The position numbers and the translations under genes were made by a program. Positions 5,528 through 34,184 of a DNA stretch of 64,000 nucleotides are shown one piece after another; the stretch's first letter is position 1; every line of letters starts with the position of its first letter. The stretch lies in NCBI GenBank assembly GCA_965263035.1, contig OZ253580.1, positions 32,001 through 96,000 on the forward strand. Direction: 5' to 3'. This DNA comes from Acidobacteriota bacterium (GTDB lineage Bacteria > Acidobacteriota > UBA6911 > RPQK01 > JAJDTT01). The notes below the pieces were generated by a model, which was given only the letters and a program-made list of their open reading frames with translations, searched no databases and was not told the origin of the DNA.

Positions 5528-6157
5528 GTGCGCCCGACATGGGCTGTATCTAAGGGATGAAAGATCCCAAGGGAGGTGATGGGACCAACCCTAGCCGAAC
5601 CGCAAGGCGTAGCCGCGAGGTGAAGCTGAAGGAAGCGGAAGGCAAACCCACGACCGCAGGAACACGAACCGGCAGTGAGGCCGGGTGCGGGCGGTGAGCT
5701 GGCGAGCAACAGCGAAACCCGAACCCCATCCAGACGCATCAGGTAGAGCCGGGCGGCCCGGGGGGAAAGATGCAGCACCTTACTCGGGGAGATCTCAAGG
5801 GTGAGAGCCCTTGAGAAGTCAGCAGAGGTCGTAGTAGCGAAGAAGCTGGGTAATGCCGGTGGAGCGAAGGACCGAAGGAGTCGGACTGGCCCTATGGTGG
5901 ACTCGTCAGCGGGATCGCAACTACCTCCGAAAACGGGCCGTGGGGAGGCCCCTCGGACCCGGCATGGAAGGCCCACGGGTGGAGCCCGGCAAGCCGGAAG
6001 GGCGGAGATCAAGTCTCAGCGGCGGCGGAAACCGGAAAGAAAGGCCCTGTACGAGGCTCGAAAGAGCCTCGGGTGACTCCAACCGCCGGATACTGAAAAC
6101 GGTATGTCCGGTGGTGTGGGAGGGTGCAGGGGCGCAATCCCCTGCACTCGACCCGAT
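5528..6157 (+). ncRNA. group IIC intron ribozyme, ORF-less (630 nt)
   Basis: 5' GTGCGCCCG; short domain V with CGC triad (AACCGCCGGATACTGAAAACGGTATGTCCGGTGG); DVI ends CCCGAT; inserted right after a hairpin; no RT ORF. Confidence 0.9.
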
Positions 6158-9270: not shown

Positions 9271-10442
9271 ATGTCTAGTTACACCTCCAATTTCGCCGTC
9301 CGTCTATTCTACAGTTATAGCCACAAAGACAGTCATTTTCGCGACTCTATGGAAGACTCGCTTTCATTGCTCAAACAACGTGGATTGCTCGATGACTGGT
9401 CAGATGTAAAGATTTTACCCGGAGGAAAGATCTCGAAAACCAACAGGAAGAAGATGGATAACGCTGACATCATGGTGTTTCTTCTCAGCCGGAACTTCAT
9501 TGCTTCGACCGAGTGCATGAAGGAATGGGAGTACGCAAAGCGTCGTACTAATGAAAAAGTGCTCGTCCGCATTCCAATAATTCTATCCGATTGTGCGTGG
9601 CTAGATTTGCTTGGGAGCGACGACATCAAAGCATTGCCGCGAGATGGCAAACCTATCATGCGATTTGCCGATGACGGTGGCGCCTGGCAACAGGTATATG
9701 AGGGCATTAAAGTCGTTGTAGACAACTTACGAACAACTTTCACTCCAAAACAGGAATTCTTGGAGATAATGGAGAAAACCGATTTCTTGTCCGTACAACA
9801 CATTAGACTACAGGACATTTTTATATTTTTAAGATTGTCCTGTTACGCACCTCATGCAAGGGGGGAACATCCACCAAAAGAACAGGTTGACACCATAGAG
9901 GAGCTATTAAAGAATAAATATACGATAGTCCACGGTGACGAGATGAGTGGCAAGACAGCTCTCGGGCGCTTTCTGTTTCTTTCTCTGACAAAGGAGTTGG
10001 AACCTGTTCTGCATATAGATTTGCAACATCTTCCTAGACGTCCCCTTCGAGAAGAAACCTTTCGCCATACATATCACCGGCAGTTTAATGGCGATTATTC
10101 TCTCTGGAAGCGACAGCCTTCAAAAACCCTTATATTGGACAACTTGCAGCCAACTCCTCAATTAGTTAAATTTATTGTACTCTCCAAGGATTATTTCGAT
10201 AAAATAATAGTTACTTTATCGTCTGATATATTCAACTCGTTTTTCAGGGACGAAGAGCGTCTGGCCGAATTCTATGAAATGGAAATTGAACCGCTTACTC
10301 ACCGACAGCAAGAGACGTTGATTAGAAATAGACTCCGATTGTCGGATCGTAGCGAAACAATCACCGACGGCGTCGTCGATCAAATAGAAAACCGAGTGAA
10401 TTCCATAATCATTTCTAACAGGATCGTACCACGGTATCCATT
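9271..10442 (+). pseudogene. TIR-domain + P-loop (STAND-like) NTPase, 5' part; split by the IS1595 cargo element
   Basis: TIR motifs LFYSYSHKD and FIASTECMKE (catalytic Glu); Walker A HGDEMSGKT; frame joins 19074-20387 across the TSD (IVPRYP|FYVLSILQ). Confidence 0.88.
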
Positions 10443-10493
10443 GGGGACTACACAGATGTCTAGGCACGCCCAAATGCGCCAAATCAGAGACTA

Positions 10494-10710
10494 TCAATCT
10501 CGCACGAAAGTGCTAGAATAGGAAGAGGGGAGCACAACAACCAAGGGCCACACCATCACAACTGCAAGGCCATCAGTCATCTTAAGGCTCCCCTGCCCCA
10601 TTGCCTACCGAATCAGGTAGAATGGCGGGGAGGGGAGCATAAAAACCAAGGCCGACACTAACACAATTAGATCAGCGGCATCAGTCATCTTAAGGCTCCC
10701 CTCCATCATT
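10494..10710. other. two paralogous stem-closed cassettes: ncRNA (+) and/or 27-28 aa hydrophobic peptides (-)
   Basis: AGGGGAGC...GCTCCCCT closing stems, shared CATCAGTCATCTTAAG, TAGAAT upstream of each; minus-strand ORFs 10494-10580 and 10605-10688 both begin MTD. Confidence 0.55.
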
Positions 10711-10716
10711 TCATTA

Positions 10717-10907
10717 TACTGCTTGCCTGTAAGATCAGACCCACGAAAGTGCTAGAATGGGATGGAGGCGGGTTGCCCGACTTTGGATGATGGGGCCTGT
10801 TTCAGAAACAGGTTGGTCCTTATGGCCACGGAGGTTCGAGTCCTCCACCCGCCTCCATCAGGGTTATTGTACTGCTTGCCTGTAAGATCAGACCCACGAA
10901 AGTGCTA
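10717..10907 (+). repeat. 38-bp perfect direct repeat flanking a tRNA-like gene
   Basis: TACTGCTTGCCTGTAAGATCAGACCCACGAAAGTGCTA at 10717-10754 and 10870-10907. Confidence 0.9.
10767..10857 (+). tRNA. tRNA-like gene, anticodon CAG (Leu), Ser-type long variable arm, U73, encoded CCA
   Basis: Acceptor GGCGGGT/ACCCGCC; anticodon arm CCTGT-TTCAGAA-ACAGG; T arm GGAGG-TTCGAGT-CCTCC. Confidence 0.85.
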
Positions 10908-11159
10908 CAAGCCCTGTCGGTGAGACCTTTCTTTTGGAGTCAATGCCCATTCGACACCTCTCGGTTGATGGACTTTCCCTTGGTCCCTTAACAGTTTGAG
11001 TTGTCCTGTAGTAATTGCATTGAACCCCTGCTCTGGCAAACCGAGCTTTTCAGTAATTGGACTTAACGACAACCCCTCCTCGTATTTCTCCAATAGATTC
11101 AAGATTCCAGCTTGGATCAAGCGTTCTCCCATCTCTGCAAGCATTCTAGCCTCTGCCAT
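10905..11159 (-). CDS. small winged-helix-like protein
   Basis: AGGAGG RBS; ILNLL...GLSLSPITEKLGL...LKLLRDQGKV pattern typical of wHTH. Confidence 0.6.
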   Translation of the reverse strand: MAEARMLAEMGERLIQAGILNLLEKYEEGLSLSPITEKLGLPEQGFNAITTGQLKLLRDQGKVHQPRGVEWALTPKERSHRQGL

Positions 11160-11185
11160 CTGCTTCCTCCTAAGTAAAATACATC

Positions 11186-11485
11186 ATGGAACTAGGATTC
11201 ACACTTCCACCCACCCGACCCCGCCCAAAGATCCCTCTACAGCAAACGTGTAAGAGGTGTGGGCAACCAGACAAGTTCGACTTCCACGTACCAGATCATC
11301 TTTGGAAGTCTATAGTCCCAAAGTCCCATCGGAACCTTGCTATGTGTCTGTATTGCTTCGATGAGGAGGCCGCCGCTAAAGGTATTCCCTACGCGTGGGC
11401 CATCACTGAGTTTTGTTTTGCAGGCCGCGGAGCCACATTTGGCTTCACGGTGTCACGATACGTTGAAAAGAGGCAACTGATCTAG
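11186..11485 (+). CDS. small Zn-finger-like protein
   Basis: CKRC...CLYC pairs. Confidence 0.55.
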   Translation: MELGFTLPPTRPRPKIPLQQTCKRCGQPDKFDFHVPDHLWKSIVPKSHRNLAMCLYCFDEEAAAKGIPYAWAITEFCFAGRGATFGFTVSRYVEKRQLI

Positions 11486-11649
11486 TCGTCACAGTCGCCG
11501 TCCTTTTCTTTGGCCTGGCACTGATTGCAAAGTTCCCCGCTGGTCGGCTTCGCGTTCCTGCTAACGTAGTCGTCCGTTGGCCAGTTGGAACAGTTGCGGC
11601 AATAGTGCCACGTATCGCTCGTTCTTCGCTTTCGGTATTGTCTCGCCAT
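11482..11649 (-). CDS. small Cys/His-rich protein (55 aa)
   Basis: WHYCRNCSNWP...ELCNQC; AGGGGGTG RBS. Confidence 0.65.
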   Translation of the reverse strand: MARQYRKRRTSDTWHYCRNCSNWPTDDYVSRNAKPTSGELCNQCQAKEKDGDCDD

Positions 11650-11766
11650 GCTTTTCACCCCCTTTCTGGCTAGTCGTGATCCCATTAAGGAAGGAATCAG
11701 AGGAGCTTGATAAGAGACTTCAAATATAGCTTGAGTGCACGCCCAAATGCGCCAAATCGGATATTC

Positions 11767-11979
11767 TCAATCGTCAATCTGAGAGGCAGCGAACTCCAAG
11801 ACTCGGGCTAGTTCTCGGGCTTGGTTAGTACTCATATATGAGTAAACATTACCGTTTTCAATCCTCAGTTCCAGTGGGTAAGTCTCTTTGCAATCTTCCT
11901 CGTGAGGGTATCGAAGGCGAACTTCCCTGGTGGGGTACGCGCTCAATGTGATCTCAAATTCTTTCTTACTGTCTATCAT
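11767..11979 (-). CDS. hypothetical protein (70 aa)
   Basis: GGAGGAGAGG RBS; lies directly downstream of a 36-aa ORF at 11992-12102 (MAIVIIVLQHL...). Confidence 0.55.
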   Translation of the reverse strand: MIDSKKEFEITLSAYPTREVRLRYPHEEDCKETYPLELRIENGNVYSYMSTNQARELARVLEFAASQIDD

Positions 11980-12548
11980 GGTCCTCTCCTCCTATAGTCC
12001 CAACATTCGAGCAAACTGCTCCTTGGTCATGCCGTCATAAATGCTGCGTTTCGGCCTGAAGAAGTTATTTAGATGTTGCAGTACAATAATGACAATTGCC
12101 ATTGGTTTACATCTCCATAGTTATTTCATTGGCAACGGCCAGGGGGTTTGGGAGTTCTTCCCCCTGGCCACTAACCTTCCTCAGATATCATACCACAGAA
12201 TCAGGAAAAGGGAACGGCGGGGAAGAGCGGAGGAGTCTGACGGCTCCGAAGCGACACACTACGCATCAGATCCGACACCCGGCTTTCCAGTGTGTCACAG
12301 GCTCCCTTGCGTGCGTGAGCAAGTAGGCAAGGAGTTCATCCTCCGCTCCTCTGTCCTCTTATTGTACTCCGTGTGCAATACGTGGAGGATTTAGGAGGCG
12401 GCGCGGCTCCAACATGGAGCAAAGGGTTTTGTGTAGCCAGTTCAGTTAGGCAAAAACGCGCCGCCCTGGTAAATGCCTACCATGATATTCGATGGAGTGC
12501 AACCTGTGATCTGGATTTCTTGTCACAGGTGGTCTACGATGCGGTGGA

Positions 12549-12652
12549 GGAGGGGTGGCAGAATTGGCATTGCACTCGAATTTAAACTCGTAGGTCAGTA
12601 GGCGTTGCACCACAGCGCACCTGTACGGGTTCAAATCCCGTCCCCTCCTCCA
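12549..12652 (+). tRNA. aberrant tRNA-like gene (104 nt): 8-nt anticodon loop ATTTAAAC, very long variable arm, U73, CCA
   Basis: Acceptor GGAGGGG/CCCCTCC; D arm GCAGAATTGGCATTGC; T arm ACGGG-TTCAAAT-CCCGT; anticodon ambiguous (TTA counting from the 5' side). Confidence 0.65.
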
Positions 12653-12662
12653 TTGTGATGTC

Positions 12663-12751
12663 GGGAGCGTGGCCGAGTTGGATTATGGCGCCCGGCTGAA
12701 AACCGGGTGGGTGTAACAGCCCCGCAGGTTCGACACCTGCCGCTCCCGCCA
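12663..12751 (+). tRNA. tRNA with a Ser-type body (G73, long variable arm) and anticodon GAA (Phe), encoded CCA
   Basis: Acceptor GGGAGCG/CGCTCCC-G-CCA; anticodon arm CCCGG-CTGAAAA-CCGGG; T arm GCAGG-TTCGACA-CCTGC. Confidence 0.88.
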
Positions 12752-12773
12752 TCAATTCATAATACTCGGAGCA

Positions 12774-13223
12774 TCAAAAAAGCCTTTGACTTCGTTGGAG
12801 CAGGCCATCGAGTCTTCCTTTCGGAAGTTTTCCAACAGATTCCCAAATCGTCTCTCCAAAAACCGCCTCATACGATCCTGATTCGATGAACTCAGTAGCG
12901 TTTAGCGAGAGGATGACCCCAACACAGTCCGCCAGTATCAGTGCGGCCAGCGCCTCACGTCGGACCATCCCTCCAAAACCATTACGGGCACCAAAATCAA
13001 TTAGGACTAGTCGATACCCTTTAAGTTCAGGAGAGCTAGACGCGATCGTTTTTATTACTGTAGTGCTGTACACCTCCAGGCTGTTAGGGTCTGTCAACTT
13101 CTGTTGAATCTGCTCGTTTAGACCCGGAACACTGCCGTCTGAACTCATGCAATTAGACCCACTCGACGGCGTACAATTGGCGGTCAGAAGCACAAGAAGC
13201 AAAACGGTGCAGGAGTTTTCCAT
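12774..13223 (-). CDS. putative lipoprotein
   Basis: Hydrophobic signal ending LTANC; DFGARNGFGGMVR motif. Confidence 0.6.
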   Translation of the reverse strand: MENSCTVLLLVLLTANCTPSSGSNCMSSDGSVPGLNEQIQQKLTDPNSLEVYSTTVIKTIASSSPELKGYRLVLIDFGARNGFGGMVRREALAALILADCVGVILSLNATEFIESGSYEAVFGETIWESVGKLPKGRLDGLLQRSQRLF

Positions 13224-13254
13224 AACTCAATCTTTAATTAGAATAGATGTAGAC

Positions 13255-13343
13255 GGCGGGTTGCCCGACTTTTGGATGATGGGGCCTGTTTCAGAAACAG
13301 GTTGGTCCTTGTGGCCACGGAGGTTCGAGTCCTCCACCCGCCG
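13255..13343 (+). tRNA. tRNA-like gene, anticodon CAG (Leu), Ser-type variable arm, G73, no encoded CCA
   Basis: Near-identical copy of 10767-10857 with the discriminator changed to G; TAGAAT at 13239-13244. Confidence 0.83.
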
Positions 13344-13477
13344 CCCTTGCAATGAAGGAGGATGAGAACCGAAACCGTGCCTTCCCTAACTTCACACTGC
13401 CGACTAGAGCAGCTTAAAAGAAGGCGAGTAACGAACCGAAAAGCTCATCCTCCTCCATCAATTTATAATACTTTGAC

Positions 13478-14755
13478 CTAAAGTCCTGGCACAGAACTGC
13501 ACTTCGATGGAACGATCACAGGATCATCCGATTCCTCAGACTCTCGGTACCTAATAGACCCTCTTTGCGACCAGGGGAGGTTAGGCACATCGGGCAGTTC
13601 AATCTCTGTTCTAGTACCGCCTACGAATCCCTTATCTGGCACCAGTACCCATTCACCACGCCTGTACCAGATGTGAGATCGTGCCCAGACCCGCGAGTAC
13701 CTAATATCGATCGGATCATCTTCGGACATACGTCGGTGGAAAGCGCCGATGTTTGGATTAGGTTTAGAGCTACTAGAAAAGGAACTCGTCCAACTCAGCT
13801 TTCCAGAGAAATTCAACCTGGCCGTAGCGACACATCGACCTGGTCTTTCTTCAAATACCTGGTGGATCTGGTATCCTTGTGCAGTATCAGGCAACTCATA
13901 TCCGCCATCAGAGGTACGGGTTCTACCACCTCCTGCAGGAACCACTGACATCCCATTCTCCAGAGCAGGAGGGATCCCTTGGTAGTCAGCACGTGCTGCC
14001 TTCCCATAGATGCCTTCTATTGTGGTGTCAAAAGCTCCCTTTTCCCGTATTACAATGTCTCTCCAGTCACCAGGGGGACAGTCACCTTCCGTCACGTCTG
14101 GAGGGCCTTCATACAATCGCTCCCACTGTGCTTCATGCCACCGGGCGTTTCCATACTCCGGAGCAAAAGACTCAACTACCATCAAGGTGTAATCGAGCCC
14201 TGTCCCTGACTCTGGGTCGTCCACTTTGACAAGCCAACGCTTGAACTCATCTACAACTCGCCGATTCATGTCGGAGTAGCTTTTGACTCCGACAATGTGC
14301 CCACGGAAGTACTCGGTCCCAGAGAACGAATCAGAGAGAACACGTATACATTCCTCTGTCTTGAGGACTTCATGGGCATCTTGAATGGGCGCTTCGGTGA
14401 GCTCCACTGATTCGCACTCGAGTTCGTCTTTGAATCTAAAGGAGTCTGTTGGGTCCTTGTCTCCATAGATGAGTACAAGAGGGTCGGGAAGAGGAACGAC
14501 CATTGCAGCAAAGAACTTCCCTGACTCGTACTCTGTGACTCTCCACTCATAGATGTGACCACAATGGATCGCATCAAAAAATTCTAGGTTGATGATCTGA
14601 CCGTCGTGGGGAGGCTCTGAAAGACTCACCTCAACGCGACAATCTGGACAGGCGTTAGGGATAAATCCGTATGGAGTGTCGAATCCCCACTTCTCCTCGG
14701 CTTGTACATTCGCCAGGAATGCAGCAAAGGCCATTAGCACAATTACTTTTCTCAT
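13478..14755 (-). CDS. secreted acidic, Cys-containing hypothetical protein
   Basis: AAGGAGG RBS; signal peptide MRKVIVLMAFAAFLANVQA. Confidence 0.75.
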   Translation of the reverse strand: MRKVIVLMAFAAFLANVQAEEKWGFDTPYGFIPNACPDCRVEVSLSEPPHDGQIINLEFFDAIHCGHIYEWRVTEYESGKFFAAMVVPLPDPLVLIYGDKDPTDSFRFKDELECESVELTEAPIQDAHEVLKTEECIRVLSDSFSGTEYFRGHIVGVKSYSDMNRRVVDEFKRWLVKVDDPESGTGLDYTLMVVESFAPEYGNARWHEAQWERLYEGPPDVTEGDCPPGDWRDIVIREKGAFDTTIEGIYGKAARADYQGIPPALENGMSVVPAGGGRTRTSDGGYELPDTAQGYQIHQVFEERPGRCVATARLNFSGKLSWTSSFSSSSKPNPNIGAFHRRMSEDDPIDIRYSRVWARSHIWYRRGEWVLVPDKGFVGGTRTEIELPDVPNLPWSQRGSIRYRESEESDDPVIVPSKCSSVPGL

Positions 14756-14783
14756 AGCGTACCTCCTTACTCTGTATTCAGAT

Positions 14784-15128
14784 TCAGAATCCCAATGCCT
14801 TGCGGGCGAACTTCTGGATCTGTTTCCACATAATGACCTGATCGAAGTGATGGTCAACGCCGTAATGGTCAGTGTGCGTTATACCATCCTTCAAAATCTC
14901 GCCTGCAATGGGGAGCACGGAGTCGGGAGTCCACCGAGTCAGAACGTCCGAAGGATCGTCCGTCCGGCACAGGTACATCTGTGCTGTAATAACGATCATG
15001 TAGTCGCCTGTGTCGGACGGAATCACGAACAGTGCGTTTGGAGGAGTCTCCACCTCCGTGTTCCAAGGGTGTCCCACACCAAACGCGACGGATAGAATTG
15101 TGATAGCGATTAGCAATGTGTTTCTCAT
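14784..15128 (-). CDS. secreted hypothetical protein (114 aa)
   Basis: AAGGAGG RBS; signal peptide; likely co-transcribed with 13478-14755. Confidence 0.7.
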   Translation of the reverse strand: MRNTLLIAITILSVAFGVGHPWNTEVETPPNALFVIPSDTGDYMIVITAQMYLCRTDDPSDVLTRWTPDSVLPIAGEILKDGITHTDHYGVDHHFDQVIMWKQIQKFARKALGF

Positions 15129-15349
15129 AATGCCTCCTTCTCGTACCTTGTGTACGACTTGTTGATTTATGACATCGGTGACCGACGCATTTAGTACACT
15201 ATTATATCACATTATAATAGATGCACAAAGCAAGACGACCAAGGAATTAAGGAAGTATTCGGAAGGGGCGGGACAATAACAAACCGCCCCTTCGAACATC
15301 GCTCCGGGGTCGGGTGAAAGTAGTAAAGCCCTCCCCCATGTGGGAGCGA

Positions 15350-15586
15350 TTACCGGGGTGGCCGAATCAAAGCTACACCTTCATCGTCGTACTGTCCGAC
15401 CCAATTATCGTGGGACAGACGATGTCGGGCGTGCGATCTCAACTGTGCCCGAGTTGCCGGGAGGAGCAGACCCATGAGGCGCGTCTGATCCTGAGCGAGG
15501 GGCAACAACGCTTCCCAGGTAATGCCTCCTGGCGCAGTCATCAAGTGATCGAGGTATCCGGCGTAGGTGCTGAAATTGCGGGGCAT
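15350..15586 (-). CDS. hypothetical protein (78 aa)
   Basis: AGGAGG RBS; preceded by a long structured leader. Confidence 0.5.
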   Translation of the reverse strand: MPRNFSTYAGYLDHLMTAPGGITWEALLPLAQDQTRLMGLLLPATRAQLRSHARHRLSHDNWVGQYDDEGVALIRPPR

Positions 15587-15991
15587 CGCGGGTCCCTCCT
15601 GGGGGAGGGTCCCGTATCAGAGGCGTAGCAAGCTGACAACGTATCGGGTAAACTGTCTGACAGGCTGACTTTCCTCCAACACAGGACCAGTTGGCTCAGA
15701 GTCCGTTGGGTGCTGATATCACCTGACGGACTCACCTTTTCAGAGTACTCGGCCTAGCTACAAGGAGCACTCGTTCCCTTGTAAGGGAGCCGGGTCTGAG
15801 TGCTCATCGAACAGCGATGCTGATGGAAGAGTTGCTTATTCACCCGGCGCGGTTCATGAGGCCACGCTTTACCAGGTTGTTTTATTCAGCAAGAGACCCG
15901 ACACAAGCGAATCACTGCCGAGAGCACTGAGGCGGGATTGTGCCGGATAAATAATTGGTAGTCAATAGAAGGGAGAAAATTATCTCAACTC

Positions 15992-16219
15992 TCAGCGGAG
16001 GGTGTCCACCACGGCATTCCGTACCGATTCCATCCAGGTCTCAATCTCCCGCTGGTGTTGGACCAGGGCCTTTACCTTGTCGTCCACAATCCGCAGCCGT
16101 CGGATAATGAGCAGGTGAGAGACGATGATGAGGAATAGGACCAGGAGCAAGGCGAAGGCGTACCAGTGTTGATCGACGATGGGAGGGATTCGGGAGAGTA
16201 ATGAGTTGAGCTGTTCCAT
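15992..16219 (-). CDS. small single-TM membrane protein
   Basis: One hydrophobic helix YAFALLLVLFLIIVSHLLII followed by a coiled-coil-like tail. Confidence 0.6.
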   Translation of the reverse strand: MEQLNSLLSRIPPIVDQHWYAFALLLVLFLIIVSHLLIIRRLRIVDDKVKALVQHQREIETWMESVRNAVVDTLR

Positions 16220-16272
16220 GCTTCAATCTTCCTGCTTTGCCGAAGTATAATACATACATGGCGGAGGGTTGA

Positions 16273-16348
16273 TGGACGCAGCGGGCTTCGGACCCGCGTC
16301 TCCCGGTTTTCAGCCGGGTGTGTTATCCGGGATAAACACTATGCGCCC
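16273..16348 (-). tRNA. tRNA with Ala identity elements (G3:U70, A73) and anticodon GAA (Phe)
   Basis: On the minus strand: acceptor GGGCGCA/TGCGTCC-A; anticodon arm CCCGG-CTGAAAA-CCGGG; T arm GCGGG-TCCGAAG-CCCGC. Confidence 0.82.
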
Positions 16349-16475
16349 TCGGTTTGCTTTTCCCTCCGCCATTCTAAACATCTTGCCAAGGTCAGGGGTC
16401 TTTGGTATTTTGGCCTCTCTCGCGCATGATTGTAGGCAATCAATATTATGTGTTATCATGTGTTCTTCAATGATG

Positions 16476-16551
16476 TGGAGCCGGTGCCAGGAATCGAACC
16501 TGGACACGAGGACTTGCTGGGCCCCGGCGTTTGCCATTCCGCCACACCGGC
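16476..16551 (-). tRNA. tRNA-like gene, anticodon AGC (Ala), no G3:U70, U73, CCA
   Basis: Acceptor GCCGGTG/CACCGGC-T-CCA; loop CCAGCAA; T arm CCAGG-TTCGATT-CCTGG. Confidence 0.8.
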
Positions 16552-16575
16552 TCCCTTCATTATAGACCGTCAGAG

Positions 16576-16651
16576 GGGAGCCGGTGCCAGGAATTGAACC
16601 TGGAAACAAGGAATTGCGAGTCCCCGACCTTGGCCACTCAGTCACACCGGC
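16576..16651 (-). tRNA. tRNA-like gene, anticodon CGC (Ala), no G3:U70, U73
   Basis: Second unit of a 100-bp tandem repeat; loop CTCGCAA; 3' end TCCC. Confidence 0.8.
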
Positions 16652-16675
16652 TCCCTTCATTATAGACCGTCAGAA

Positions 16676-16751
16676 GGGAGCCGGTGCCAGGAATCGAACC
16701 TGGAAACAAGGAATTGCCACTCCCCGACCTTGGCCACTCGGCCACACCGGC
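16676..16751 (-). tRNA. tRNA-like gene, anticodon GGC (Ala), no G3:U70, U73
   Basis: Third unit of the 100-bp tandem repeat; loop GTGGCAA; 3' end TCCC. Confidence 0.8.
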
Positions 16752-16871
16752 TCCCTTCATTTTAGCACAGGGGGACTATCGTGAAAAAACGACCTCGCAA
16801 GCCCGTGGACATCCTAGCCCTGGCAATGCGCCGGGCTTATGAGCAAACTAGGGGCGGAGAAGCCGAATCCC

Positions 16872-17843
16872 TCAATGAAGATCGTCCGCCTTGTCGGAAA
16901 CCAGATCGAGATACAGCAGACGACGACCGACCATCCCCGCCACGATGTGCTTCATCTGGTCAATAGTATCCAGTTCCCGGATGTTGTGACGCTTGACAAA
17001 CTCGTTGACGTAGCGGTGCAGGTGCTTCACGCTCAAGCTGTGGAACGTCCCCATGTAGCCCCGCTTCAACATCGACCAGAAGGATTCGATGCCATTTGTG
17101 TGTACTATGCCGTCAACGTACTGTTGAGCGCTGTGTCTCACAGACTTGCGATTTGAGCCCATCCAGGCGTAAGCCTGATTCTCGTCCGTGTACGACTTCA
17201 CTCCGAAAGTGGAGCTGTCCAAAATGAACCGGGCAAGAGTCTCCTTTGTCGTGTCCGGCACCACCCTGGCCCTGATTTGATTCGTAGGCCGGTCCTTCAT
17301 GCCTACCACTGCGGTCTTGCCTGAGGGTCCACGACCGGAAAACATCGCCCGTCGCTTCTTGCTCATGTTCCTCCGCTTGCCTCCCATATAAGTCTCGTCG
17401 ATTTCCACGGGACCGATCAGAGCTTCCAAATCGTCCTTGTCCAAGGACTCGCGGAGTCGGTGCAACATGAACCACGCCGTATTCTGCGTCACGTCGATGT
17501 CTCGATGGAGTTTCATCGAGGAGACTCCCTTGAGGTTCGTGACGTAGATGAAAATGGCGTAGGCCCATTTTCGGAGCGGAACCTTGGATCTTGTCAAGGC
17601 CGTGCCAGTGCGGACGCTGAAATACCTACGGCAGTCCGAACACCAGTACGGCTGCGGATATCGGTTTGGCGTCTCATTCGTCTTGACGCTGCCGCAATGA
17701 CCACAGCACCGTTCCTCGGGCCAGAGAACATCCTCAAACCATTTCGTCGCGGCTTCCTCCGTGGGGAACATCTCCGCGAGTTGGATCATTGAGATCCCTT
17801 GTCGGTAGAACTTTCCGGGGGCTTTCCCCTTGCACTTGTCCAT
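16872..17843 (-). CDS. IS1595-family (ISXO2-like) transposase, intact
   Basis: Zn ribbon CGHCGS/CSDC, AWFMLHRLR, VEIDETY, YTDE, HTNGIESFWS, YVNEF. Confidence 0.93.
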   Translation of the reverse strand: MDKCKGKAPGKFYRQGISMIQLAEMFPTEEAATKWFEDVLWPEERCCGHCGSVKTNETPNRYPQPYWCSDCRRYFSVRTGTALTRSKVPLRKWAYAIFIYVTNLKGVSSMKLHRDIDVTQNTAWFMLHRLRESLDKDDLEALIGPVEIDETYMGGKRRNMSKKRRAMFSGRGPSGKTAVVGMKDRPTNQIRARVVPDTTKETLARFILDSSTFGVKSYTDENQAYAWMGSNRKSVRHSAQQYVDGIVHTNGIESFWSMLKRGYMGTFHSLSVKHLHRYVNEFVKRHNIRELDTIDQMKHIVAGMVGRRLLYLDLVSDKADDLH

Positions 17844-18079
17844 GGTGGGCCTTTCGTGGTAGGATTCTCGGGACGCGGCTGAACCGAGGAACCCACGGCC
17901 TGGCAACCTCCGTTTGTAAGTGAGAGACCAGAGCGCAGGACCTGCTTCGAAACCGCGTCCAATTCAATTATATCACACCTTTATAGATGGTGTTTTTATC
18001 AGCCTTACTCTCCTTTAATTCCCTGTAATTATGCCATCGGACCCTGACATTTTTCTGTCATAAATCCTTTGTTTAGTTT

Positions 18080-18438
18080 AAGGTTACGAAGATTTAATTG
18101 ACCTTTTGTGTGATTGTGTGGTAAAATTATTGGGTTAATGTGAACAGGAGGCATGATGACTAAGAAGGAACTCAACGGATTCACAGAGGCAGTTCGAACG
18201 GTTGTCCGAGAGGAATTAAAGCCGATTGAGCAGCGTCTCGACAAACGCCTTGACGACTTGAAGAAGGAAATCCCTGGTCTAGTTGCGGACGTGATCGCAC
18301 AACGATTTCCAACCCTGTTCCCACACTCATAGGCTGCCAGATCAATTAGGAGGAAGGTTACGAAGATTTAATTGACCTTTTGTGTGATTGTGTGGTAAAA
18401 TTATTGGGTTAATGTGAACAGGAGGCATGATGACTAAG
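18080..18438 (+). promoter_or_regulatory. duplicated 85-bp promoter+RBS+start block
   Basis: Identical at 18080-18164 and 18354-18438: TTGACC-N18-TAAAAT with extended TG, AGGAGG, ATGATGACTAAG. Confidence 0.8.
18153..18332 (+). CDS. small coiled-coil protein (59 aa, MMTKKELNGFTEAVR...)
   Basis: Hand-translated; strong promoter and RBS; N-terminus paralogous to 18427-18705. Confidence 0.7.
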   Translation: MMTKKELNGFTEAVRTVVREELKPIEQRLDKRLDDLKKEIPGLVADVIAQRFPTLFPHS

Positions 18439-18705
18439 GAAGAACTCAACGGTTATGTCAACGCCGTCAGGCTCGTGGTCCAGGAGGAACTTGAGCCCGT
18501 CAAATCTCAGATTACAACCCTGACTCTTCGAATGGGAGATGTGGAACTGAGGTTGGGAGAGGTTGAAGCCAGAATGGGCACGTTGGAGTCTCGCATGGGA
18601 ACGGTCGAGGCCAGAATGGGGACATTGACTCAGAGAATGGGTGATGTTGAGACTAAGGTAGGGGCGTTGACTCAGAGAATGGGTGATGTTGAAGCCAAAT
18701 TGTAG
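18427..18705 (+). CDS. heptad-repeat coiled-coil protein (92 aa)
   Basis: 7-aa repeats such as RMGDVEL, RLGEVEA, RMGTLES. Confidence 0.75.
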   Translation: MMTKEELNGYVNAVRLVVQEELEPVKSQITTLTLRMGDVELRLGEVEARMGTLESRMGTVEARMGTLTQRMGDVETKVGALTQRMGDVEAKL

Positions 18706-19073
18706 GATGGGGTGATGGAGGAGAACGACTAGACGTAGTTGTAGGGGTAGGTGACTACTGCCCCTCCGGGGGGAGCGATGGAGTTAGTCAAACTACCACT
18801 CCCTCTGTCCCCTCCATCATTTAATTATACTCCCCACGAAAGTGTAGAATGGGATGATGGAGGAGGGAAACCAATCCTGCCGTCCCATGTATTAACACCA
18901 CAATCGGCAGGGCTACCGTTGAGGCACACCCCAAGGCGGTAGGCTGCTCAGCGATAGTGTGTCTTCCACTGGGTCCAGCCATCGCCCTCCTCCATCATGT
19001 GATTGTACTCCCCACGAATGTAAGGCCCAGTTCAATGACCCTGGAGGCGTGCCTAGACATCTGTGTAAGCCCC

Positions 19074-20387
19074 TATCCATTCTACGTACTCTCAATACTC
19101 CAAACCTACGAGGCCTTTATGCCTAGTGAGCTCTCTATTACTTCCTACGGTCACTGTTACTATGTCCTTATTATTGCCAACTTAGTTAAGGCAGGCATAC
19201 CTCGTAGCGACGATCAACTAAATACATGTTTTTACTTTGCAGAACGCTTAGCATTTGAAATTTATCGGATTGCAAGGAAATCCAACTCGGGGTCGTTGGA
19301 TTTTGACAAGTTTGTGGCGGACTACAGAAATCAATATATAATTTCGCGATCGGTCCTGAGTAGGTTGATGCATCCCGATTTTGGAATCATCAATACAGAA
19401 GGTCAATTCAAAACAGCGTACATGTACTACTTCTTTCTGGGCAGGTTCCTCTCGAAGAACCGCAGCACACACATATCCATAATTGAGAATATGTGTGAAA
19501 ATAGCCACGTGACTTCGAACCACCTGACGCTTCTTTTCGTTATTCATCATACTGATGATAGACAAATAATTGATGACATATTGCTTAGGACAATGTGCAC
19601 ACTGGACACTGTGCAACCCGCGGTTCTAGATCGAACGGAAACTCGGAGATTCAAGGATATCATTGCCGGGCTCCCCACAAATATACTCTCCAATGATAGT
19701 GTGGTGAAGGAAAGGAAAAGACAGAGGGATGGTCGCGACTTGACCGAGAAGCAAGACGGGTACGATGGTGATACGGATGGCATCGATCAACAAAGCCTGG
19801 TTAACGACATTTACAAAATCTTTAAAAATAACGAGATTATGGGGCAAATTCTACGAACCAAATACGGAACGTTAAAAAAAGAGACGATTGTGGAAATCAT
19901 CGAGACGATTGCGGACAGTGGGCTACGCCTTGTCAACTTTGTCCTCAAGGATGAAAAGGAAATAGCCGATACCGCCCACTACCTTCATGCGAAATATCCG
20001 AAGGATGATATAAAGAAGATAAAAAACTATCTTCAATTCTTTTCTTTTTTCTGGACGATAGTAAATGTTGAAAAAGTTGCTAGAGCCATAAATGTTCCAG
20101 AGATTATTGAAACGGTCGATTCAGTCGTTACGCGGAAGGGGTCGCCGGCGTACGATCTTATTGGATACTTCAGCCTGCTCGACAGTTCTCCGGAAATCTC
20201 AAGGAAAGTTAATAAACGACTAGGATACCTATTGAACACTCACAAGGACCTGTTTGTTAAGTGGGTGTTGTCAATTAGAACGCAATACTATATGAATACC
20301 CACGATAGTGGGGCATCGATGGAGCAATCGGTCTGTTCGTTGTTAGATATCAAGTATTCCTCAGCCCATCGTTCCTTACGACGGTAA
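19074..20387 (+). pseudogene. TIR-NTPase gene, 3' part (reconstituted protein about 825 aa)
   Basis: In frame with 9271-10442 once the element and one TSD copy are removed; same low-GC codon style. Confidence 0.88.
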
Positions 20388-20599: not shown

Positions 20600-22337
20600 C
20601 CCAGATTATTCATGGAACATGTTGATAAGAGCTTCCAACCCGGCGTTTTCGTGCGATCGGAGCCCGGTTTCTCTTGAACCTCTGTCGATTCGACTGAATC
20701 GGCTCGAAAACAGGACGATTGAACCAGTCATTAACCGTTTACCGGCCAGGGGGACCGTCACCCGCCGACAGGTTGACTTTCCGGTGAGAAATCCCCACCG
20801 TTTCGGTCCCTTCCACGGGCCCGTTTTCTCCTCCGTCCACTATCCCGGCGCCCAGGACACCCGCGCCAGTCTCTGCCACAACCGCTTCCAGTCCGTCGCC
20901 CCTTGACTGATGACGAAAATCAATCGCCTCCCCTGACGCAGCGCCCGACTCGCCACTCGCAACACCCGCTCGCGAAAACGACGCAGACTCCAGCCCCGAC
21001 GCGTCGCCTGCTCCATCAGCACCCGACCCAGGTGCAGGATCTCGTACCCCAGCAGATTCAGCAGGAACCGGACTTCGTTGTGGGGTCGAACGCCGGCCTC
21101 CGTCCTCGCTTCCGGCTTGGCTTCCGACTTCAGCGGTTGGCCCCGATAGTGCGTCTTGGGCCGGCTCGCGGAGGACAAGGCCGGATCGAGCACGTCCATG
21201 AACTCCCCCATGTGGCCTTCCGCCTTCCCCCGCTTTCGATACTGTGCCAGCAACTCCTGAGCCTCGTATCGTTTCCGGCTCAGGCTCGTCAGCAACCAGA
21301 AATGATCCGGATACAACTCCCCCGGTCGCTCCCGCACCACCAGCACCACCCGGAGCGTCAACTTCAGCGCCTTTTTCCCCAGGTAGCTGGCTCCCGGAAA
21401 AATCTCCCCGTCGATCAGGTCCCCCGTCTCGGCACAACTCGCCACCAACCCGTGGTACATCCGCTGGCGATAGTATCCGTTCCATTCGCTTCCCGGGGGA
21501 TGCCCATGGACCTCGACCGGGAGACCGTCCACGTCCAGGTACATCGTCTTTTTCCGTCTCTTCTTCCGTGGGGTCTTTTTCCCCCGTTTTCGCCGCTGGC
21601 CTTCGATCATCTCGATCCGACGGCACGCCAGCTCCGTCACCGCCTGGTGCAGGACCGGAAGGTTCTCCTCCCGGCTGAGCGTGTCCAGCAGTCGGGACAA
21701 GGTCGGCTGCGACGCCAGCCCCTGGCCCTCCTCCAAGGCCGCCGTGCCCCGACGAGTCCGGCTCGCCACCCGCAAGCTCGGATCCTGACGCAGGCGGTCG
21801 GCGTCGGACTGGTCGCGCCAGCCCTGACCCAGCAGCAGGAGTCGAGTCCGCAGCAGATCCGACAGCGGATAGCGGATCGAACTCGGGTGTCGCGGATCGT
21901 GCAACCGCCCGGTCAACCAGTCGATGAGGCCGCTGCGATCCATCAGCTCCCGCTGCACCAGGGCTCCCGTGTCCGCACTGAGCAACTCGGGGCGGGTCTC
22001 GAGGCGGAGGGATCGGTTGAATGAGGGCCGGATCTGCGGTATCGTCTCAGGCATGGCGTGCTCCGTTCTTTGTGGTTGTTTCTTAGCACTATAATCATAC
22101 CACAAATGACGGGCACGCCGTCTCTTTATGCCGCCCTTGGAGGGGACGAAAACCGTGGAAATGCTTGGGTTTCGGCCCCCCTTGAATCCTGGGGTTAAAC
22201 CGACGTTGAAAACAAATATAGCGTTTCACCCAGGTCGGATCCCATCCGTTTTCTGTGGGTATCCGGTAACCCTCTGATCCGACTCGACATGACGGGCACG
22301 CTTGCTCATTTTATGTTTGCGTGATGAATAATCTGGG
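20600..22337 (-). mobile_element. IS1380-family element; transposase (20840-22054) appears internally deleted
   Basis: TIR CCCAGATTATTCAT / ATGAATAATCTGGG; LASQPTLSR, YLDVD and YRKRGKAE motifs present, central catalytic segment missing. Confidence 0.8.
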
Positions 22338-22342
22338 ATTAA

Positions 22343-23686
22343 GGGGATTATCTACCAAACTATACAAATCCCCTATCACTTCGGCTTCTTATGGACACGA
22401 ATAGACGGGTCCGGTCGCTTGGCGTTGGCGAACATCCTACGGGCAACTTCCTCCGGTGTGGCATCCAATTTGATGATGCGGGTGACAGGGCGTCCACCTT
22501 TGTTCTTAGGTTTGGGTTTCTTCGCCATTCTCACGTTTCCCGAATGGACATATATCTCCGCTTTTTATTCTCTTTTCGCAAACCGATCAGTGTGTAGACG
22601 TTGGACTTGAGCCGGTTACACGGACCGCATCAATGGGCTGTGGACGGTTACTAGGCTCACGCAATCAAATCCCGGTAGTGTAGGAGCTTCCTGTCCATTC
22701 TCCGGACTATGAAGCCCATCTGTGTGTCCATTTCCCGGATGTTCTGTCTTCCAGCGAACTCCCGAACGTATTTGTGAGTGGGCTTGGACGAGAAGTGATG
22801 GAACGTCCCAACGTATCCCGGCTTGAGCATGCTCCACAGGGACTCGATGCCATTGGTATGAACTTGGCCCTTCACTTACTCTTGGGCGCTATGATTGACC
22901 GAATCGTGGGAGTATTCCTTCAGGCCGATGTAGGCGGGCGAGTCATCCGTGTAGACTTCCGACTCCGGGACCACAGTCTCACGTACGAACTTTACGAACT
23001 TCAGGAGGGTCTTTCCCTTGGGGTTCGGGACCACCTTGGGCGCCACCCGCTTGGTCTGCCGGTCTTTTATCCCGACGACAGCCGTCTTTCCCACGGCCCC
23101 ACGTCCTTCCATCTGGGCTCTCTTGGCCTTTGGCATGTTCTTCCGCTTCCCGCCCATGTAGTTTTCGTCCACTTCGACTGGACCCGGCATAACTGTTGGA
23201 TCACCGAAGAACTCCTCACGGATTCTCTGCATGAGATACCAGGCCGTCTTCTGCGTGATTCCCAGCCCCCTGTGGAGCTTCATCGAAGAGGTGCCCTTCA
23301 GTCCCGTAGTCATCATGTAGATGGCGAGGGCTCACTTCTGGAGGCCGATCTTGCTGGACTGCATGACCATGCCCTTGCGGACGCTGAAGTAACGTCGACA
23401 ATCCCGGCAGTGGTAAGGCATGGGTTTCCGGGACTTCACGGCCTTCGTATTGACTGAGCCGCAATCTGGGCAACATCTCTCGTTGCCCCAACGCTGCTCT
23501 TCAAACCACTTCTCGGCGGCCGTATCGTCGGGAAACATCCGAAGCAACTGGATGATGGTCAACCCTTCTCTATGGGCCTTTCCGGGGGCTTTCTTCGCTG
23601 TTCTCTTTGTTCCTTTCATGTGTAGTATTCGACCAGAATCCACTGACACTTTTCAACGGATTAGTGTAGTATGGTATATAATCTCC
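22343..23686 (-). mobile_element. second IS1595-family element, transposase pseudogene (22657-23619, fragmented)
   Basis: 29-bp imperfect TIRs (GGGGATTATCTACCAAACTA.. / rc GGAGATTATATACCATACTA..), ATTAA on both flanks; VEVDE, YTDD and HTNGIES motifs spread over three ORF pieces. Confidence 0.85.
22376..22528 (-). CDS. small basic passenger protein (50 aa, MAKKPKPKNKGGRP...DATPEEVAR)
   Basis: Hand-translated; lies inside the IS1595 TIRs, downstream of the transposase. Confidence 0.55.
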   Translation of the reverse strand: MAKKPKPKNKGGRPVTRIIKLDATPEEVARRMFANAKRPDPSIRVHKKPK

Positions 23687-23776
23687 CAAATTAAGGTAGG
23701 GAAAGTAGACTCCGAATGTTGAAATTGCACCCTCAAATCCATGACACATGGCTCCGCTGAGCGACGCCCGTTTGCA

Positions 23777-24917
23777 TGTCACCAGCACGTGAACTTGTCC
23801 GGTTTTATGACACGTGATCTGTCCGGTCGGTGAAAATGTGAACCCCCTCCTCGCGTCGCCTGGGGGCCGTCTGTGAGACTTCCGGTCAGACTTGGCCGGA
23901 AGCTTGACCCGACGCTTCCCAGGGCGCATCCGGCTCTCTGGAGTCCCGACTTCACGCCGCCTCCCTCCCTTGGTGCGCTTCCCCTGGGGTCCGCCCACCC
24001 AGCGCCGAGTGAGGCCGCTCCCCGTTGTAGAACTCCATCCACTCCCCGATCACCCGCTCGGCCTCGAATCCGTCCGCCAGTTCACGCAGGTAAACCGCTT
24101 CGTACTTCAGCTACCGCCAAACCCTTTGATGAACACGTTGTCCAGACAACGACCGCGACCGTCCATCGAGCACTGTGCCCCGGACGCCTGCACCCACTCG
24201 GTGAACGCCCGGCTCGTGAACTGCGCTCCCTGATCCGTGTTGAAGATCGTCGGTAGCCCTTGTGAGAGCGCCCTTTCCAGAGCCTCGACACAGAACTCGC
24301 TGTCCATCGTGTTGGACAACCGCCACGACAGCACGTACCGACTGCCCCAGTCCTTCACCGCCACCAAGTACAAATACCCCTTTTAGACAGGGATATACGT
24401 GATGTCAGGGCACCAGACCTGATGGGGCTCGTCGATCTTCAGGCCCCGGAGTAGGTAGGGGTAGACGCGGTGTTCCGATCGGGCAACGCTGGTTCTCGGC
24501 TTCGGGTAGATGGCCTCCAAACCCAGGAGCCGCATCAACCGACGAATCCGGTGCCGACCGACGAGGACCCCTTCGCGGCGCAGGTGGCGCCTCAGCTGCC
24601 GGCTGCCGTAGAACGGATACTGAAGAGACAACTCGTCCATGCGGCGCATCAGTGCGAAGTTCTCCGGGCCCTCCCCCTTCGGCGTGTAATACAGCGACGA
24701 TCGACTGATCCCCAAAGTAGAGAAGGTGACTGTCCCCTTCTCCTCCAGGAGGCTTTCATGACACGGTTCCCCCGGCGGCGAGAGATTCCGCAGGTCTTCG
24801 GTCGGCGCCCGGAAGGATCGCCTTGAAGAACTCGGCGTGGCGGCACATCCGATAGCTGTTGCCCCGGATGTTGACAATGTGGCAGCGGTGGAGCAACCGG
24901 GCCAAGAGCGCGGCGGC
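23777..24917 (-). pseudogene. nested IS debris: IS21-like end, frameshifted IS3 OrfB, IstB C-terminal fragment
   Basis: TGTC end with repeated ACGTGA..TGTCCGG motifs; YPFYGSR, FNTDQGAQFTS; rc RLLHRCHIVNIRGNSYR. Confidence 0.75.
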
Positions 24918-24971
24918 CATCACCTCCTTCGGGATCTTTCATCCCTTAGATACAGCCCATTTCGGGCACCC
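24918..24971 (-). pseudogene. 5' fragment of the group IIC intron
   Basis: Reverse complement matches the first ~54 nt of 5528; preceded by the same GGCGGCTGGAAA-type hairpin. Confidence 0.75.
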
Positions 24972-25019
24972 GAGGGGCGCCTTTCCAGCCGCCCGCCCGC
25001 ATCGGACTGGTTCAACTTA

Positions 25020-25290
25020 CGTCTCACGGCCGAAACGAGGGGTCCTTCCGGTCCATGAGCCGCACCAGACCTCGACCTCCAGTTGGCTAAGTTGGAGGCA
25101 TGCTGGCCGAATGCCTCCATTTGCTCCGCCGACCGCCTGACGACCAACTCGGAGGGGGCACCAAGTTCTGCCGATAGGCCATGGCGTCGACCTGGACTTG
25201 ACAGGCCCTCTCCAATCGGTAGATGTAGAGAAACGCCGCCGCGACGGTTCGCTCCACGGTCAACAGACCATGATTGCGCAGGATCATGGT
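25020..25290 (-). pseudogene. class II aldolase 3' fragment
   Basis: MILRNHGLLTV...YRLERACQVQ, paralogous to 40693-41475, frameshifted. Confidence 0.8.
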
Positions 25291-25303
25291 ATTTGCATCC
25301 TTT

Positions 25304-32355: not shown

Positions 32356-32743
32356 CTTGCCCTCTCACGTCGGTTGGGGTACGGGGGCGAAAACTCGCTG
32401 ATGAGAGCGTTTCCTGTCATTCTCAGTCAACACCAGCCAGTACGCGACGCCCGATTACGGCTACACCCATCGTGCGTCCGGCAGTTCACTGGCCCATTCC
32501 GATGTGCGAGTGAACTGCACATCTTGCAACCCCCGCGCCACCAAGTGACTTAAAGTCAGGTTACCATGAGTACACGTAGATCAAATATAGCTGAGCGGGA
32601 AACTACAATCGACACTGATAGACGCATCGACAGCCTAACGAGAGTTGGTCGCCGCGGGGATTGCAGTGTTGGGTGAAATCCCCCCGGTTGTCCAAACGCG
32701 ACAATGCGATTGGGTTCCGATCACTGGAGAAACGAGGGCTCTT

Positions 32744-33605: not shown

Positions 33606-34184
33606 CAGTTGCCGGATTCCGGAATTCAAGGTAGAATTTTTCCAGTTTATTGCCGTTGCAGAACCTATTCTGTTCACGCGAGCCATAGCGGGCAGACTCT
33701 GGAAGGTGTTTTCAGGTGAGCCCCTGTCGACGAGACGCTTCCCACCCCACCTTGCGCAATATCGCGGCCACACTGGGCCTCATATTGCTCACTGGTAGTG
33801 CTCTTCCAGGAGTCCGGTCCATCACCGAACAGACCGAGTTCTTCGAGTCCAAAGTCAGGCCCCTTCTGGCACGAAATTGCTACCAGTGCCACAGCGAACA
33901 GGCCAAGATCCTGTATTCCAACTTGCGGGTGGACGACCGAGCCGCCTTGCTGAATGGAGGCAACCGGGGCCCTGCGATCGTCCCCGGCGCCCCGAGCTCA
34001 AGCCAGCTGATTCAGGCAGTCCGTTACGAGAACCTTGAAATGCCTCCGGCCGGAAGGTTATCGGAGGATCAGATCGAGGCGCTGGTCAAATGGGTCGAGA
34101 TGGGTGCACCCTGGCCGGATCTGGAGGTGGCCGGTGGCGTCAAGACCTCCAAAGGGCAAGGCACCCTGGCCGCCAGTCCTAGCC

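Follow-up and report, generated by a model that had tools for sequence, protein, structure and literature searches.

The window considered here, a 64,000-nucleotide stretch of the genome of an Acidobacteriota bacterium (GenBank assembly GCA_965263035.1, contig OZ253580.1, positions 32,001 to 96,000 of the forward strand), carries two nearly identical class II tRNA genes that join the leucine anticodon CAG to a long variable arm and to six or seven of the seven nucleotide features by which bacterial seryl-tRNA synthetase (SerRS) selects its substrates, and both are cargo of an IS1595-family transposon cleanly inserted into an anti-phage gene. The reading that in our judgement fits these genes best, put forward tentatively and with rather less than even confidence, is that they would be charged with serine and would place it at CUG codons, which normally specify leucine. 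Irregular serine-type tRNAs have come mainly from soil metagenomes, without a cultured host. Here a tRNA of that type, with a canonical 7/5 acceptor branch and a leucine anticodon, is encoded in a complete genome and in a sharply bounded transposon, and a natural pair of alleles with U73 or G73 at the discriminator position, together with mismatched neighbours, makes charging, ribosomal use and tolerance testable in one strain. Were the genes active, transposons would be able to spread mistranslation of a sense codon as a trait. Deliberate misreading of sense codons by natural tRNAs is described from the CUG-clade yeasts and, in bacteria, from the tRNAs termed tRNAProX (PMC11415595).

The two genes (copy 1 and copy 2; Table 1) hold the only CAG anticodons among the six tRNAs that ARAGORN calls in the window, and ARAGORN, the Rfam tRNA model and direct reading of the sequence agree in what an earlier note on this DNA had described, two near-identical CAG tRNAs with a long variable arm and different discriminator bases. 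Their Rfam scores come from a permissive search of positions 9500-18000 (gathering score 29), and a default-filter Rfam scan of the whole window lists neither. The coordinates first proposed hold for both starts and for the end of copy 1; the end given for copy 2, position 13343, is its discriminator base, and ARAGORN ends the gene at 13345. Both copies have a 7-bp acceptor stem (GGCGGGU/ACCCGCC), the D stem CCCG/UGGG, the anticodon stem CCUGU/ACAGG, the anticodon loop UUCAGAA (U33, CAG, A37, A38), a 5-bp T stem closed by the T loop UUCGAGU, and a variable region in which one unpaired U is followed by a 5-bp stem and then by C48, abutting the T stem, so that the 5-bp variable stem directly before C48, on which the earlier note had relied, is seen in each. 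The universal decoding features U8, A14, G18G19, A21, U33, a purine at 37, G53-C61 and the 7/5 branch are retained, and copy 1 encodes its NCCA end. Alignment of the copies finds four differences, all outside the stems: an extra U in the D loop, A or G in the variable loop, U73 or G73, and A76 or C76 (CCA versus CCC). The tRNA bodies are 96-97% identical, whereas the 100-base flanks share 31% and 27% ungapped identity, which is about random; either the structure was retained during divergence or the duplication was confined to the gene. Since the differences avoid the stems and the flanks stand at random identity, the structure appears, on this comparison of sequences, to have been kept under constraint. 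Of the sequencing runs on record for positions 10400-17000 none is of RNA; the DNA contigs from six such runs agree without differences in the pieces compared, and break at the repeated tRNA.

That both CAG genes are transposon cargo follows from the inverted ends, the target duplication, the split gene and the transposase gene inside. The inverted-repeat arms (10440-10470 and 19046-19076) span 31 nt (28-31 nt) at 90% complementarity and are flanked by identical 8-bp copies of the target-site duplication TATCCATT. Members of the IS1595 family have a transposase with a zinc ribbon, inverted repeats and an 8-bp target duplication, as here, and may carry passenger genes. The insertion divides a TIR-STAND anti-phage gene in a defence island, and in silico excision of 10443-19081 restores one open frame of 825 codons (825 aa); because the duplication is still identical and the split gene still in frame, the insertion is not only clean but recent. 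The G+C content is 46-55% around the CAG genes against about 63% outside that region, and the split anti-phage gene itself has 42.9%. The terminal repeats occur once in the genome, and elsewhere in it the transposase gene finds DNA matches of 64-77% only. Among the element's open reading frames (ORFs), scans with Pfam, PADLOC and NCBIfam recognised no synthetase, nuclease, toxin or antitoxin family.

The case for serine rests on the determinants of tRNA identity. Those listed for bacterial serine tRNAs are G73, C72, G2-C71, R4-Y69, C11-G24, a large variable region and G30-C40 (PMC9976931, Table 1), and copy 2 has all seven, the 4-69 pair being G4-C69 in both copies; copy 1 has six, the missing one being G73, which is U73 there. 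For leucine the same source gives A73, a determinant in Bacteria, Eukarya and Archaea (PMC9976931, Table 1), together with tertiary interactions that in bacteria include A15:U48 and A20a; A73 and A15:U48 are absent from both CAG copies. It further reports that C2-G71 of Escherichia coli tRNA-Leu acts against SerRS, that G73 of E. coli tRNA-Ser acts against leucyl-tRNA synthetase (LeuRS) and TyrRS, that putting C73 for A73 in a truncated E. coli tRNA-Leu abolished charging, and that SerRS recognises the long arm and the acceptor end and ignores the anticodon (PMC9976931). In the host comparison set, in which the three odd genes (the CAG pair among them), four tRNA-Ser and eight tRNA-Leu were parsed, C2-G71 is found in 8/8 tRNA-Leu, and both CAG copies have G2-C71. 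The variable junction of the CAG copies, one unpaired base, the stem and then C48, is that of all four host tRNA-Ser (with stems of 6-8 bp), whereas the variable region of all eight host tRNA-Leu ends in G-U48. The earlier note had also held that bacterial tRNA-Leu uses A73 and leaves a base unpaired 3' of the variable stem, and both points stand: the determinant list is joined by A73 in seven of the eight host tRNA-Leu (the eighth was mis-framed by ARAGORN), and two unpaired 3' bases fold in 6/8 of them and in neither CAG copy. After G19 the CAG D loop, GACUUUGGAUGAU, has five bases, like those of host tRNA-Ser and tRNA-Tyr, and the leucine-type D loop, GAAUUGGCAGAC, has four.

One argument in the same direction fails. 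The earlier note had taken G37 as the rule in tRNA-Leu isoacceptors with NAG anticodons, so that A37 would speak against leucine; a tRNA pattern search across the phylum had hits in 46 of 401 genomes, and among the 30 loci fetched were 11 tRNA-Leu(CAG) genes with the loop CUCAGAA (A37), a leucine D loop and a leucine-type variable arm, 10 of them ending in A73 (…ACCA) and the eleventh (L028) framed one base off. These canonical genes refute the view that A37 proves a non-leucine identity, and A37 is therefore no argument against leucine here. In their own right, these A37 tRNA-Leu(CAG) genes (L015-L018, L020-L023, L026-L028) are common in several families of the phylum and depart from the m1G37 rule for CUN-reading tRNA-Leu.

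The host offers a setting in which such tRNAs could act. The window belongs to a single contig of 6,198,070 bp and 62.1% G+C, and the genome has one SerRS, of bacterial type with an N-terminal arm domain, one LeuRS, and one canonical tRNA-Leu(CAG) gene, with G37, A73, C2-G71, the leucine-type D loop and U48. Codon counts over 1,021 long open frames put CUG first (51.2 per 1000), followed by GCC (rank 2, 45.5) and, further down, UUC (rank 9, 31.8), which bears out the statement that CUG is very common in this GC-rich host. If the CAG tRNAs decode, each gene would be transcribed from its own -10-like box and processed, the single SerRS would serylate copy 2 (G73) well, copy 1 (U73) less so, and LeuRS would reject both; if elongation factor EF-Tu and the ribosome accepted the products, these would vie with the single canonical tRNA-Leu(CAG) and bring serine to CUG, and the outcome would be programmed or parasitic mistranslation with the code unchanged. 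Serylation is the most likely charging because the serine set is present, the leucine set is absent and SerRS is blind to the anticodon.

A good deal weighs against this reading. Copy 1 has U73 where G73 counts for SerRS, a base of moderate importance for serine identity in E. coli (PMC9976931), and U73, G2-C71 and C3-G70 also make up an acceptor set for CysRS, so that copy 1 would be a weaker or possibly ambiguous SerRS substrate; copy 2 has no encoded CCA; and UGGA, the four bases directly 5' of copy 1, can pair with UCCA and could hinder 5' processing. The core is odd in both copies, with C15 facing C48, so that there is no purine-pyrimidine Levitt pair, and with 6-7 bases before G18G19 against four in host tRNA-Ser and five in host tRNA-Leu, and E. 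coli SerRS is described as responding to tertiary shape (PMC9976931). Whole-sequence likeness is low. Profile hidden Markov models with masked anticodons were built from 30 distinct tRNA-Ser and 39 distinct tRNA-Leu of the genome and its order (for 11 tRNA-Leu(CAG), of the phylum), with the loci of one unpublished genome (G016) left out and training sequences scored in-sample. On the serine profile the copies score 22.6 and 21.9 bits, the four host tRNA-Ser 53-85 and host tRNA-Tyr, which thus ranks above both copies, 41; on the leucine profile the copies reach 13.0 and 10.8 bits and the eight host tRNA-Leu 43-79, so that the copies lean to serine by about 10 bits only. The searches described below found no relative and leave the reading without comparative support, some irregular soil tRNAs are charged but unused in translation and others uncharged (PMC5389517), and, if active, two copies competing with one canonical gene for the commonest codon ought to be toxic. 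Of the leucine-to-serine mistranslators at CUG that the earlier note had proposed, then, the serine-like build and the abundance of CUG stand, and profile likeness and the core tell against them, which leaves the proposal, on sequence grounds, short of an even chance; its serine-like architecture likewise holds for the determinants and the variable junction and fails for whole-sequence profile likeness, C15:C48 and the D loop. The low serine-profile scores and the odd core, despite the determinants, mark the genes as foreign class II tRNAs with serine determinants rather than close kin of this lineage's tRNA-Ser.

Searches for relatives were broad. For the CAG tRNA, blastn in 60 related genomes (eight of the same genus) returned only a 32-nt T-arm match (G018, E 0.006), and against phage and plasmid records it returned no match; neither the 21-nt anticodon arm nor a 19-mer of the inverted repeat has an exact match in 185,579 species genomes and viral contigs. 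A 21-mer of the T arm and acceptor recurs in seven soil metagenome contigs (L037-L043), and one viral contig has the 3' part only. Six of the soil contigs (L037-L042) hold one family of tRNA-like genes directly behind sigma-54-like TGGCA-N6-TTGC sites, among which ARAGORN calls a tRNA in L042 alone, of allo-type with CAG, A37 and an acceptor stem of 8-10 bp; the seventh, L043, has no tRNA call. On these sequences the shared 21-mer is taken as tRNA conservation, not kinship. A 459-aa protein encoded in the element has 12 homologues at up to 72% identity, one from an Acidobacteriota metagenome-assembled genome and the others metagenome proteins; it matched only the window's own genome among 401 of the phylum (1/401) and was not found in viral contigs or plasmids. 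G016 has no match to the CAG tRNA, the tRNA pattern or this protein, and has ordinary tRNA-Ser and tRNA-Leu matches. At the five CUG codons of the 459-aa gene the 12 homologues have L, I, V, W or F and no serine (0/43 aligned residues); opposite its Phe and Ala codons stand mainly F and A. In this small sample there is thus no sign of a donor in which CUG had been reassigned to serine, and since it fits a standard reading of the element's own genes, activity of the CAG tRNAs would mean mistranslation, not reassignment.

Among known systems, the closest in design are the tRNA-Ser(CAG) of the CUG-Ser2 yeasts (Ascoidea, Saccharomycopsis), which likewise unite a serine-type long-arm body with CAG, and in which serine-type CAG tRNAs with A37 coexist with tRNA-Leu(CAG) (PMC11415595). 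The present genes differ in being bacterial, carried by a transposon, found in one strain only rather than vertically inherited, and present as two discriminator alleles; they also have U33, whereas some natural mistranslators have G33 or A33 according to PMC11415595. A second comparison is with the allo-tRNAs and the polycistrons of irregular tRNAs of soil bacteria, which have serine-type bodies with non-serine anticodons, include (9/3) species for CUG, are linked to transposon-related and toxin-antitoxin genes and lie in clusters with other irregular tRNAs (Mukai et al. 2017, PMC5389517). Allo-tRNAs have by definition an 8/4 or 9/3 acceptor branch, and L042 agrees with the (9/3) group that includes CUG readers (PMC5389517); for the CAG genes an allo-tRNA fold was tried and rejected, since the branch is 7/5, U8 cannot pair with C65 and outward extension destroys the NCCA end. 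Sequences of the irregular soil tRNAs are unrelated to the CAG genes except in the T-arm and acceptor 21-mer, which tRNA conservation can explain, and their U73 species were guessed to be poor ThrRS or GlyRS substrates (PMC5389517). The tRNAProX (tRNAProA, ProN and ProT of Streptomyces and Kitasatospora) cause mistranslation in E. coli cells that express them (PMC11415595, PMC10404621) and resemble the CAG genes in a mismatch between body and anticodon and in an abnormal 15:48 contact (A15-A48 there, C15-C48 here), but they are class I, of proline type, with a dedicated synthetase, ProRSx (PMC11415595), whereas no extra synthetase was found here. The CAG genes are thus not allo-tRNAs, because of their 7/5 branch, and neither tRNA-Ser of the lineage nor tRNA-Leu. 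In the literature we found no description of bacterial, canonical 7/5 serine-type CAG tRNAs, nor of an IS1595-type element whose cargo is almost wholly tRNA and tRNA-like genes; published supplements may hold more.

The mismatch between body and anticodon is not confined to the CAG pair. Besides that pair the element holds six or more irregular tRNA or tRNA-like genes, of which one is a class II tRNA with the phenylalanine anticodon GAA and the full serine set (G73, G2-C71, C11-G24, with G15:C48 and a serine-type variable junction), scoring 26.8 bits with the serine and 8.3 with the leucine profile. By its sequence it would be a candidate phenylalanine-to-serine misreader, comparable to a human tRNA-Ser G35A variant (PMC12993449). 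Three more are tandem units with alanine anticodons (the NGC trio), which lack the alanine pair G3:U70 and have a threonine-type acceptor (G1-C72, C2-G71, G4-C69, G5-C68, U73) nearly that of host tRNA-Thr(CGU); these nucleotides match the threonine acceptor determinants given for bacteria (PMC9976931). On a cloverleaf structure supplied by hand, 60/60 cells of the trio are paired, with three compensatory pairs, a result equalled in 36/500 shuffles and drawn from three sequences only; the consensus from RNAalifold is not a cloverleaf. As the same mismatch recurs in these four neighbouring tRNAs, a body of one identity with the anticodon of another is a rule of the element and not an accident of one gene, and the anticodons of the set read the host codons ranked 1, 2 and 9. 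An imaginative extension, improbable in our view, is that the transposon is a mobile "mistranslation cassette" of identity-swapped tRNAs (serine bodies with CAG or GAA, threonine-like ones with AGC, CGC or GGC) aimed at the commonest codons of high-GC hosts. Their own promoters, which share a palindromic CACGAAAGTG box, could be held shut by a repressor of the element, perhaps the winged-helix-like ORF of 84 aa at 10905-11159, and the tRNAs, once released, would poison the proteome as an RNA-only toxin serving addiction, abortive infection or stress-induced proteome diversification.

TABLE 1. Transposon, interrupted anti-phage gene, RNA genes and promoter-like sites, with positions in the window.
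Feature	Positions	Strand	Basis
Class II tRNA gene, copy 1 (CAG, A37, U73, encoded CCA)	10767-10857	+	ARAGORN; Rfam tRNA 44.4 bits
Class II tRNA gene, copy 2 (CAG, A37, G73, CC(C), no encoded CCA)	13255-13345	+	ARAGORN; Rfam tRNA 42.9 bits
IS1595-family transposon, 8,631 bp, 51.8% GC	10443-19073	.	Inverted ends, 8-bp duplication, frame restoration
Left terminal inverted repeat	10443-10470	+	Repeat search, pair I1
Right terminal inverted repeat	19046-19073	-	Repeat search, pair I1
Target-site duplication TATCCATT	left 10435-10442, right 19074-19081	.	8 bp, identical copies
IS1595-family transposase gene, 344 aa	16872-17906	-	Pfam DDE_Tnp_IS1595 E 1.8e-34, Zn_ribbon_IS1595
TIR-STAND anti-phage gene, 5' part	9271-10521	+	Pfam TIR_2; PADLOC ThsB-like TIR, PDC-S60; NCBIfam DS8_antiphage 311-560 of 994
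TIR-STAND anti-phage gene, 3' part	18957-20387	+	NCBIfam DS8_antiphage 554-994, E 5.1e-68; PDC-S60
Class II tRNA, Phe anticodon GAA	12663-12751	+	ARAGORN; Rfam 52.9 bits
Three tandem 100-bp promoter-plus-tRNA units, Ala anticodons AGC, CGC, GGC	16476-16752	-	ARAGORN, Rfam, repeat family D1
Class I tRNA-like gene, GAA, T loop UCCGAAG	16273-16348	-	Rfam 50.6 bits
tRNA-like gene, 101 nt, U73-CCA	12549-12649	+	Rfam 39.4 bits with mismatched anticodon stem; fold
Four structured RNA modules, not cloverleaves	10526-10602, 10631-10707, 13354-13459, 18853-19000	+	ARAGORN, Rfam
Promoter-like motif CACGAAAGTGCTAGAAT (TG-n-TAGAAT extended -10; function inferred)	10742-10758	+	Motif search; ends 8 bases before copy 1
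Promoter-like site TTTCCA-16-TAGAAT	13217-13244	+	Consensus scan; ends 10 bases before copy 2

The strongest rival to serine misreading, possible though in our estimate on the unlikely side, is that these are tRNA-shaped RNAs without a use in decoding, charged or not, which serve the transposon or the host otherwise, for example as decoys or spare substrates for tRNA-cutting enzymes of defence or toxin systems, as regulators of the element or as parts of an addiction module. It draws on the make-up of the element, in which at least 12 genes for small structured RNAs are arrayed; several of them are not cloverleaves and yet share 5' and 3' motifs with the rest. The four structured modules have terminal helices of 8-14 bp, UCCA ends in three, and in common a 5' TAGAAT and a 3' CCATCA...ATACT box; their fold z-scores are, in order, -1.5 (not significant), -4.5, -4.0 and -4.8, and a permissive search of 9500-18000 found no Rfam family for the non-tRNA modules. 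The class I GAA gene, which shares its exact anticodon stem-loop with the class II GAA tRNA, sits within an 11-bp outer helix (16255-16372) with z = -5.1. The long terminal helices drawn on here carry z-scores of -4.0 to -5.1. The 101-nt gene has good acceptor, D and T arms, with about 50 nt in place of the anticodon and variable arms and the anticodon stem unpaired. The 5' box common to the modules, CACGAAAGTGnTAGAAT, has 4 matches against 0.30 expected, and the 3' box, CCATCAnTTnATwATACT, which starts at the CCA end, has 6 against 0.22. A non-decoding role would also suit the location in a defence island, the odd core (C15:C48, long D loop) and low profile scores of the CAG genes, and the report that some irregular soil tRNAs are charged yet unused and that some killed E. 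coli (PMC5389517). It sits less well with the full set of universal decoding features in the CAG genes, with anticodons that are non-random and read top host codons, and with the failure to recognise a nuclease, toxin or antitoxin family in the element. Ten bases separate the module of the 101-nt gene (12549-12652) from the class II GAA tRNA that follows it.

A second rival, decidedly unlikely, holds that the genes are silent or decaying passengers, relics of another organism's tRNA array with no present effect. That nothing alike turned up in the 60 relatives or the other collections searched would fit, as would the CCC of copy 2 in place of CCA and the decayed modules nearby, namely a promoter copy without a gene (10866-10910) and the tRNA-like gene with the unpaired anticodon arm. 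Decay is at odds, however, with stems intact in both copies between randomised flanks, with the compensatory changes in the NGC trio, with the clean and recent insertion and with the -10-like boxes retained before both copies. The motif CACGAAAGTGCTAGAAT before copy 1 occurs again at 10503-10519 and, decayed, at 10895-10911 (direct repeats D3, D5). The consensus scan that found the site before copy 2 gave 11 sites against 5.5 +/- 2.4 in shuffles, a weak enrichment, so that this site is weak evidence.

Least probable but for one is a non-serine identity of copy 1, a doubtful proposition by which CUG would receive one amino acid from copy 1 and another from copy 2. Cysteine is the candidate: U73, G2-C71 and C3-G70 form the acceptor set of bacterial CysRS (PMC9976931), the end GGCGGGU...U equals that of host tRNA-Cys (GGCGGCG...U) in its first five pairs, and the discriminator is the only difference between the copies at the stem end. 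CysRS, though, also requires G34, C35 and A36 (PMC9976931), where copy 1 has CAG; the long variable arm is foreign to tRNA-Cys; and U73, which many of the element's modules share, may be a trait of the family that says nothing about identity. That the CAG genes are ordinary leucine tRNAs of a donor organism, charged with leucine, has next to nothing to recommend it beyond the anticodon, the long variable arm and the A37 found in the phylum's own tRNA-Leu(CAG), since A73 is absent, a C73 swap abolished charging of truncated E. coli tRNA-Leu, G73 acts against LeuRS in E. coli tRNA-Ser (PMC9976931), A15:U48 and the leucine D loop are absent too, G2-C71 stands for C2-G71 and the leucine profile scores fall far below those of host tRNA-Leu.

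Some minor observations concern the surroundings. Inside the transposon near its right end (18131-18330 and 18427-18705, plus strand), a short coiled-coil ORF with repeated RMG(D/T)VE units has both its start and the region before it duplicated. Foreign or mobile DNA adjoins at 20600-36600, with a DDE_Tnp_1_4 transposase (20840-22105), a broken IS1595 copy (22657-23649), IS3-like fragments (24107-24877) and an IS4-like ORF (34245-36596), and a pair of ATPase genes of 357 aa and 1,993 aa, without a match to a defence family, occupies 25304-32355. The genome encodes planctomycete-type cytochrome domains, and the window has two copies of a group II intron (5609-5872 and 56776-57039, plus strand), recognised by the Rfam D1-D4 domains at 85.5 and 76 bits.

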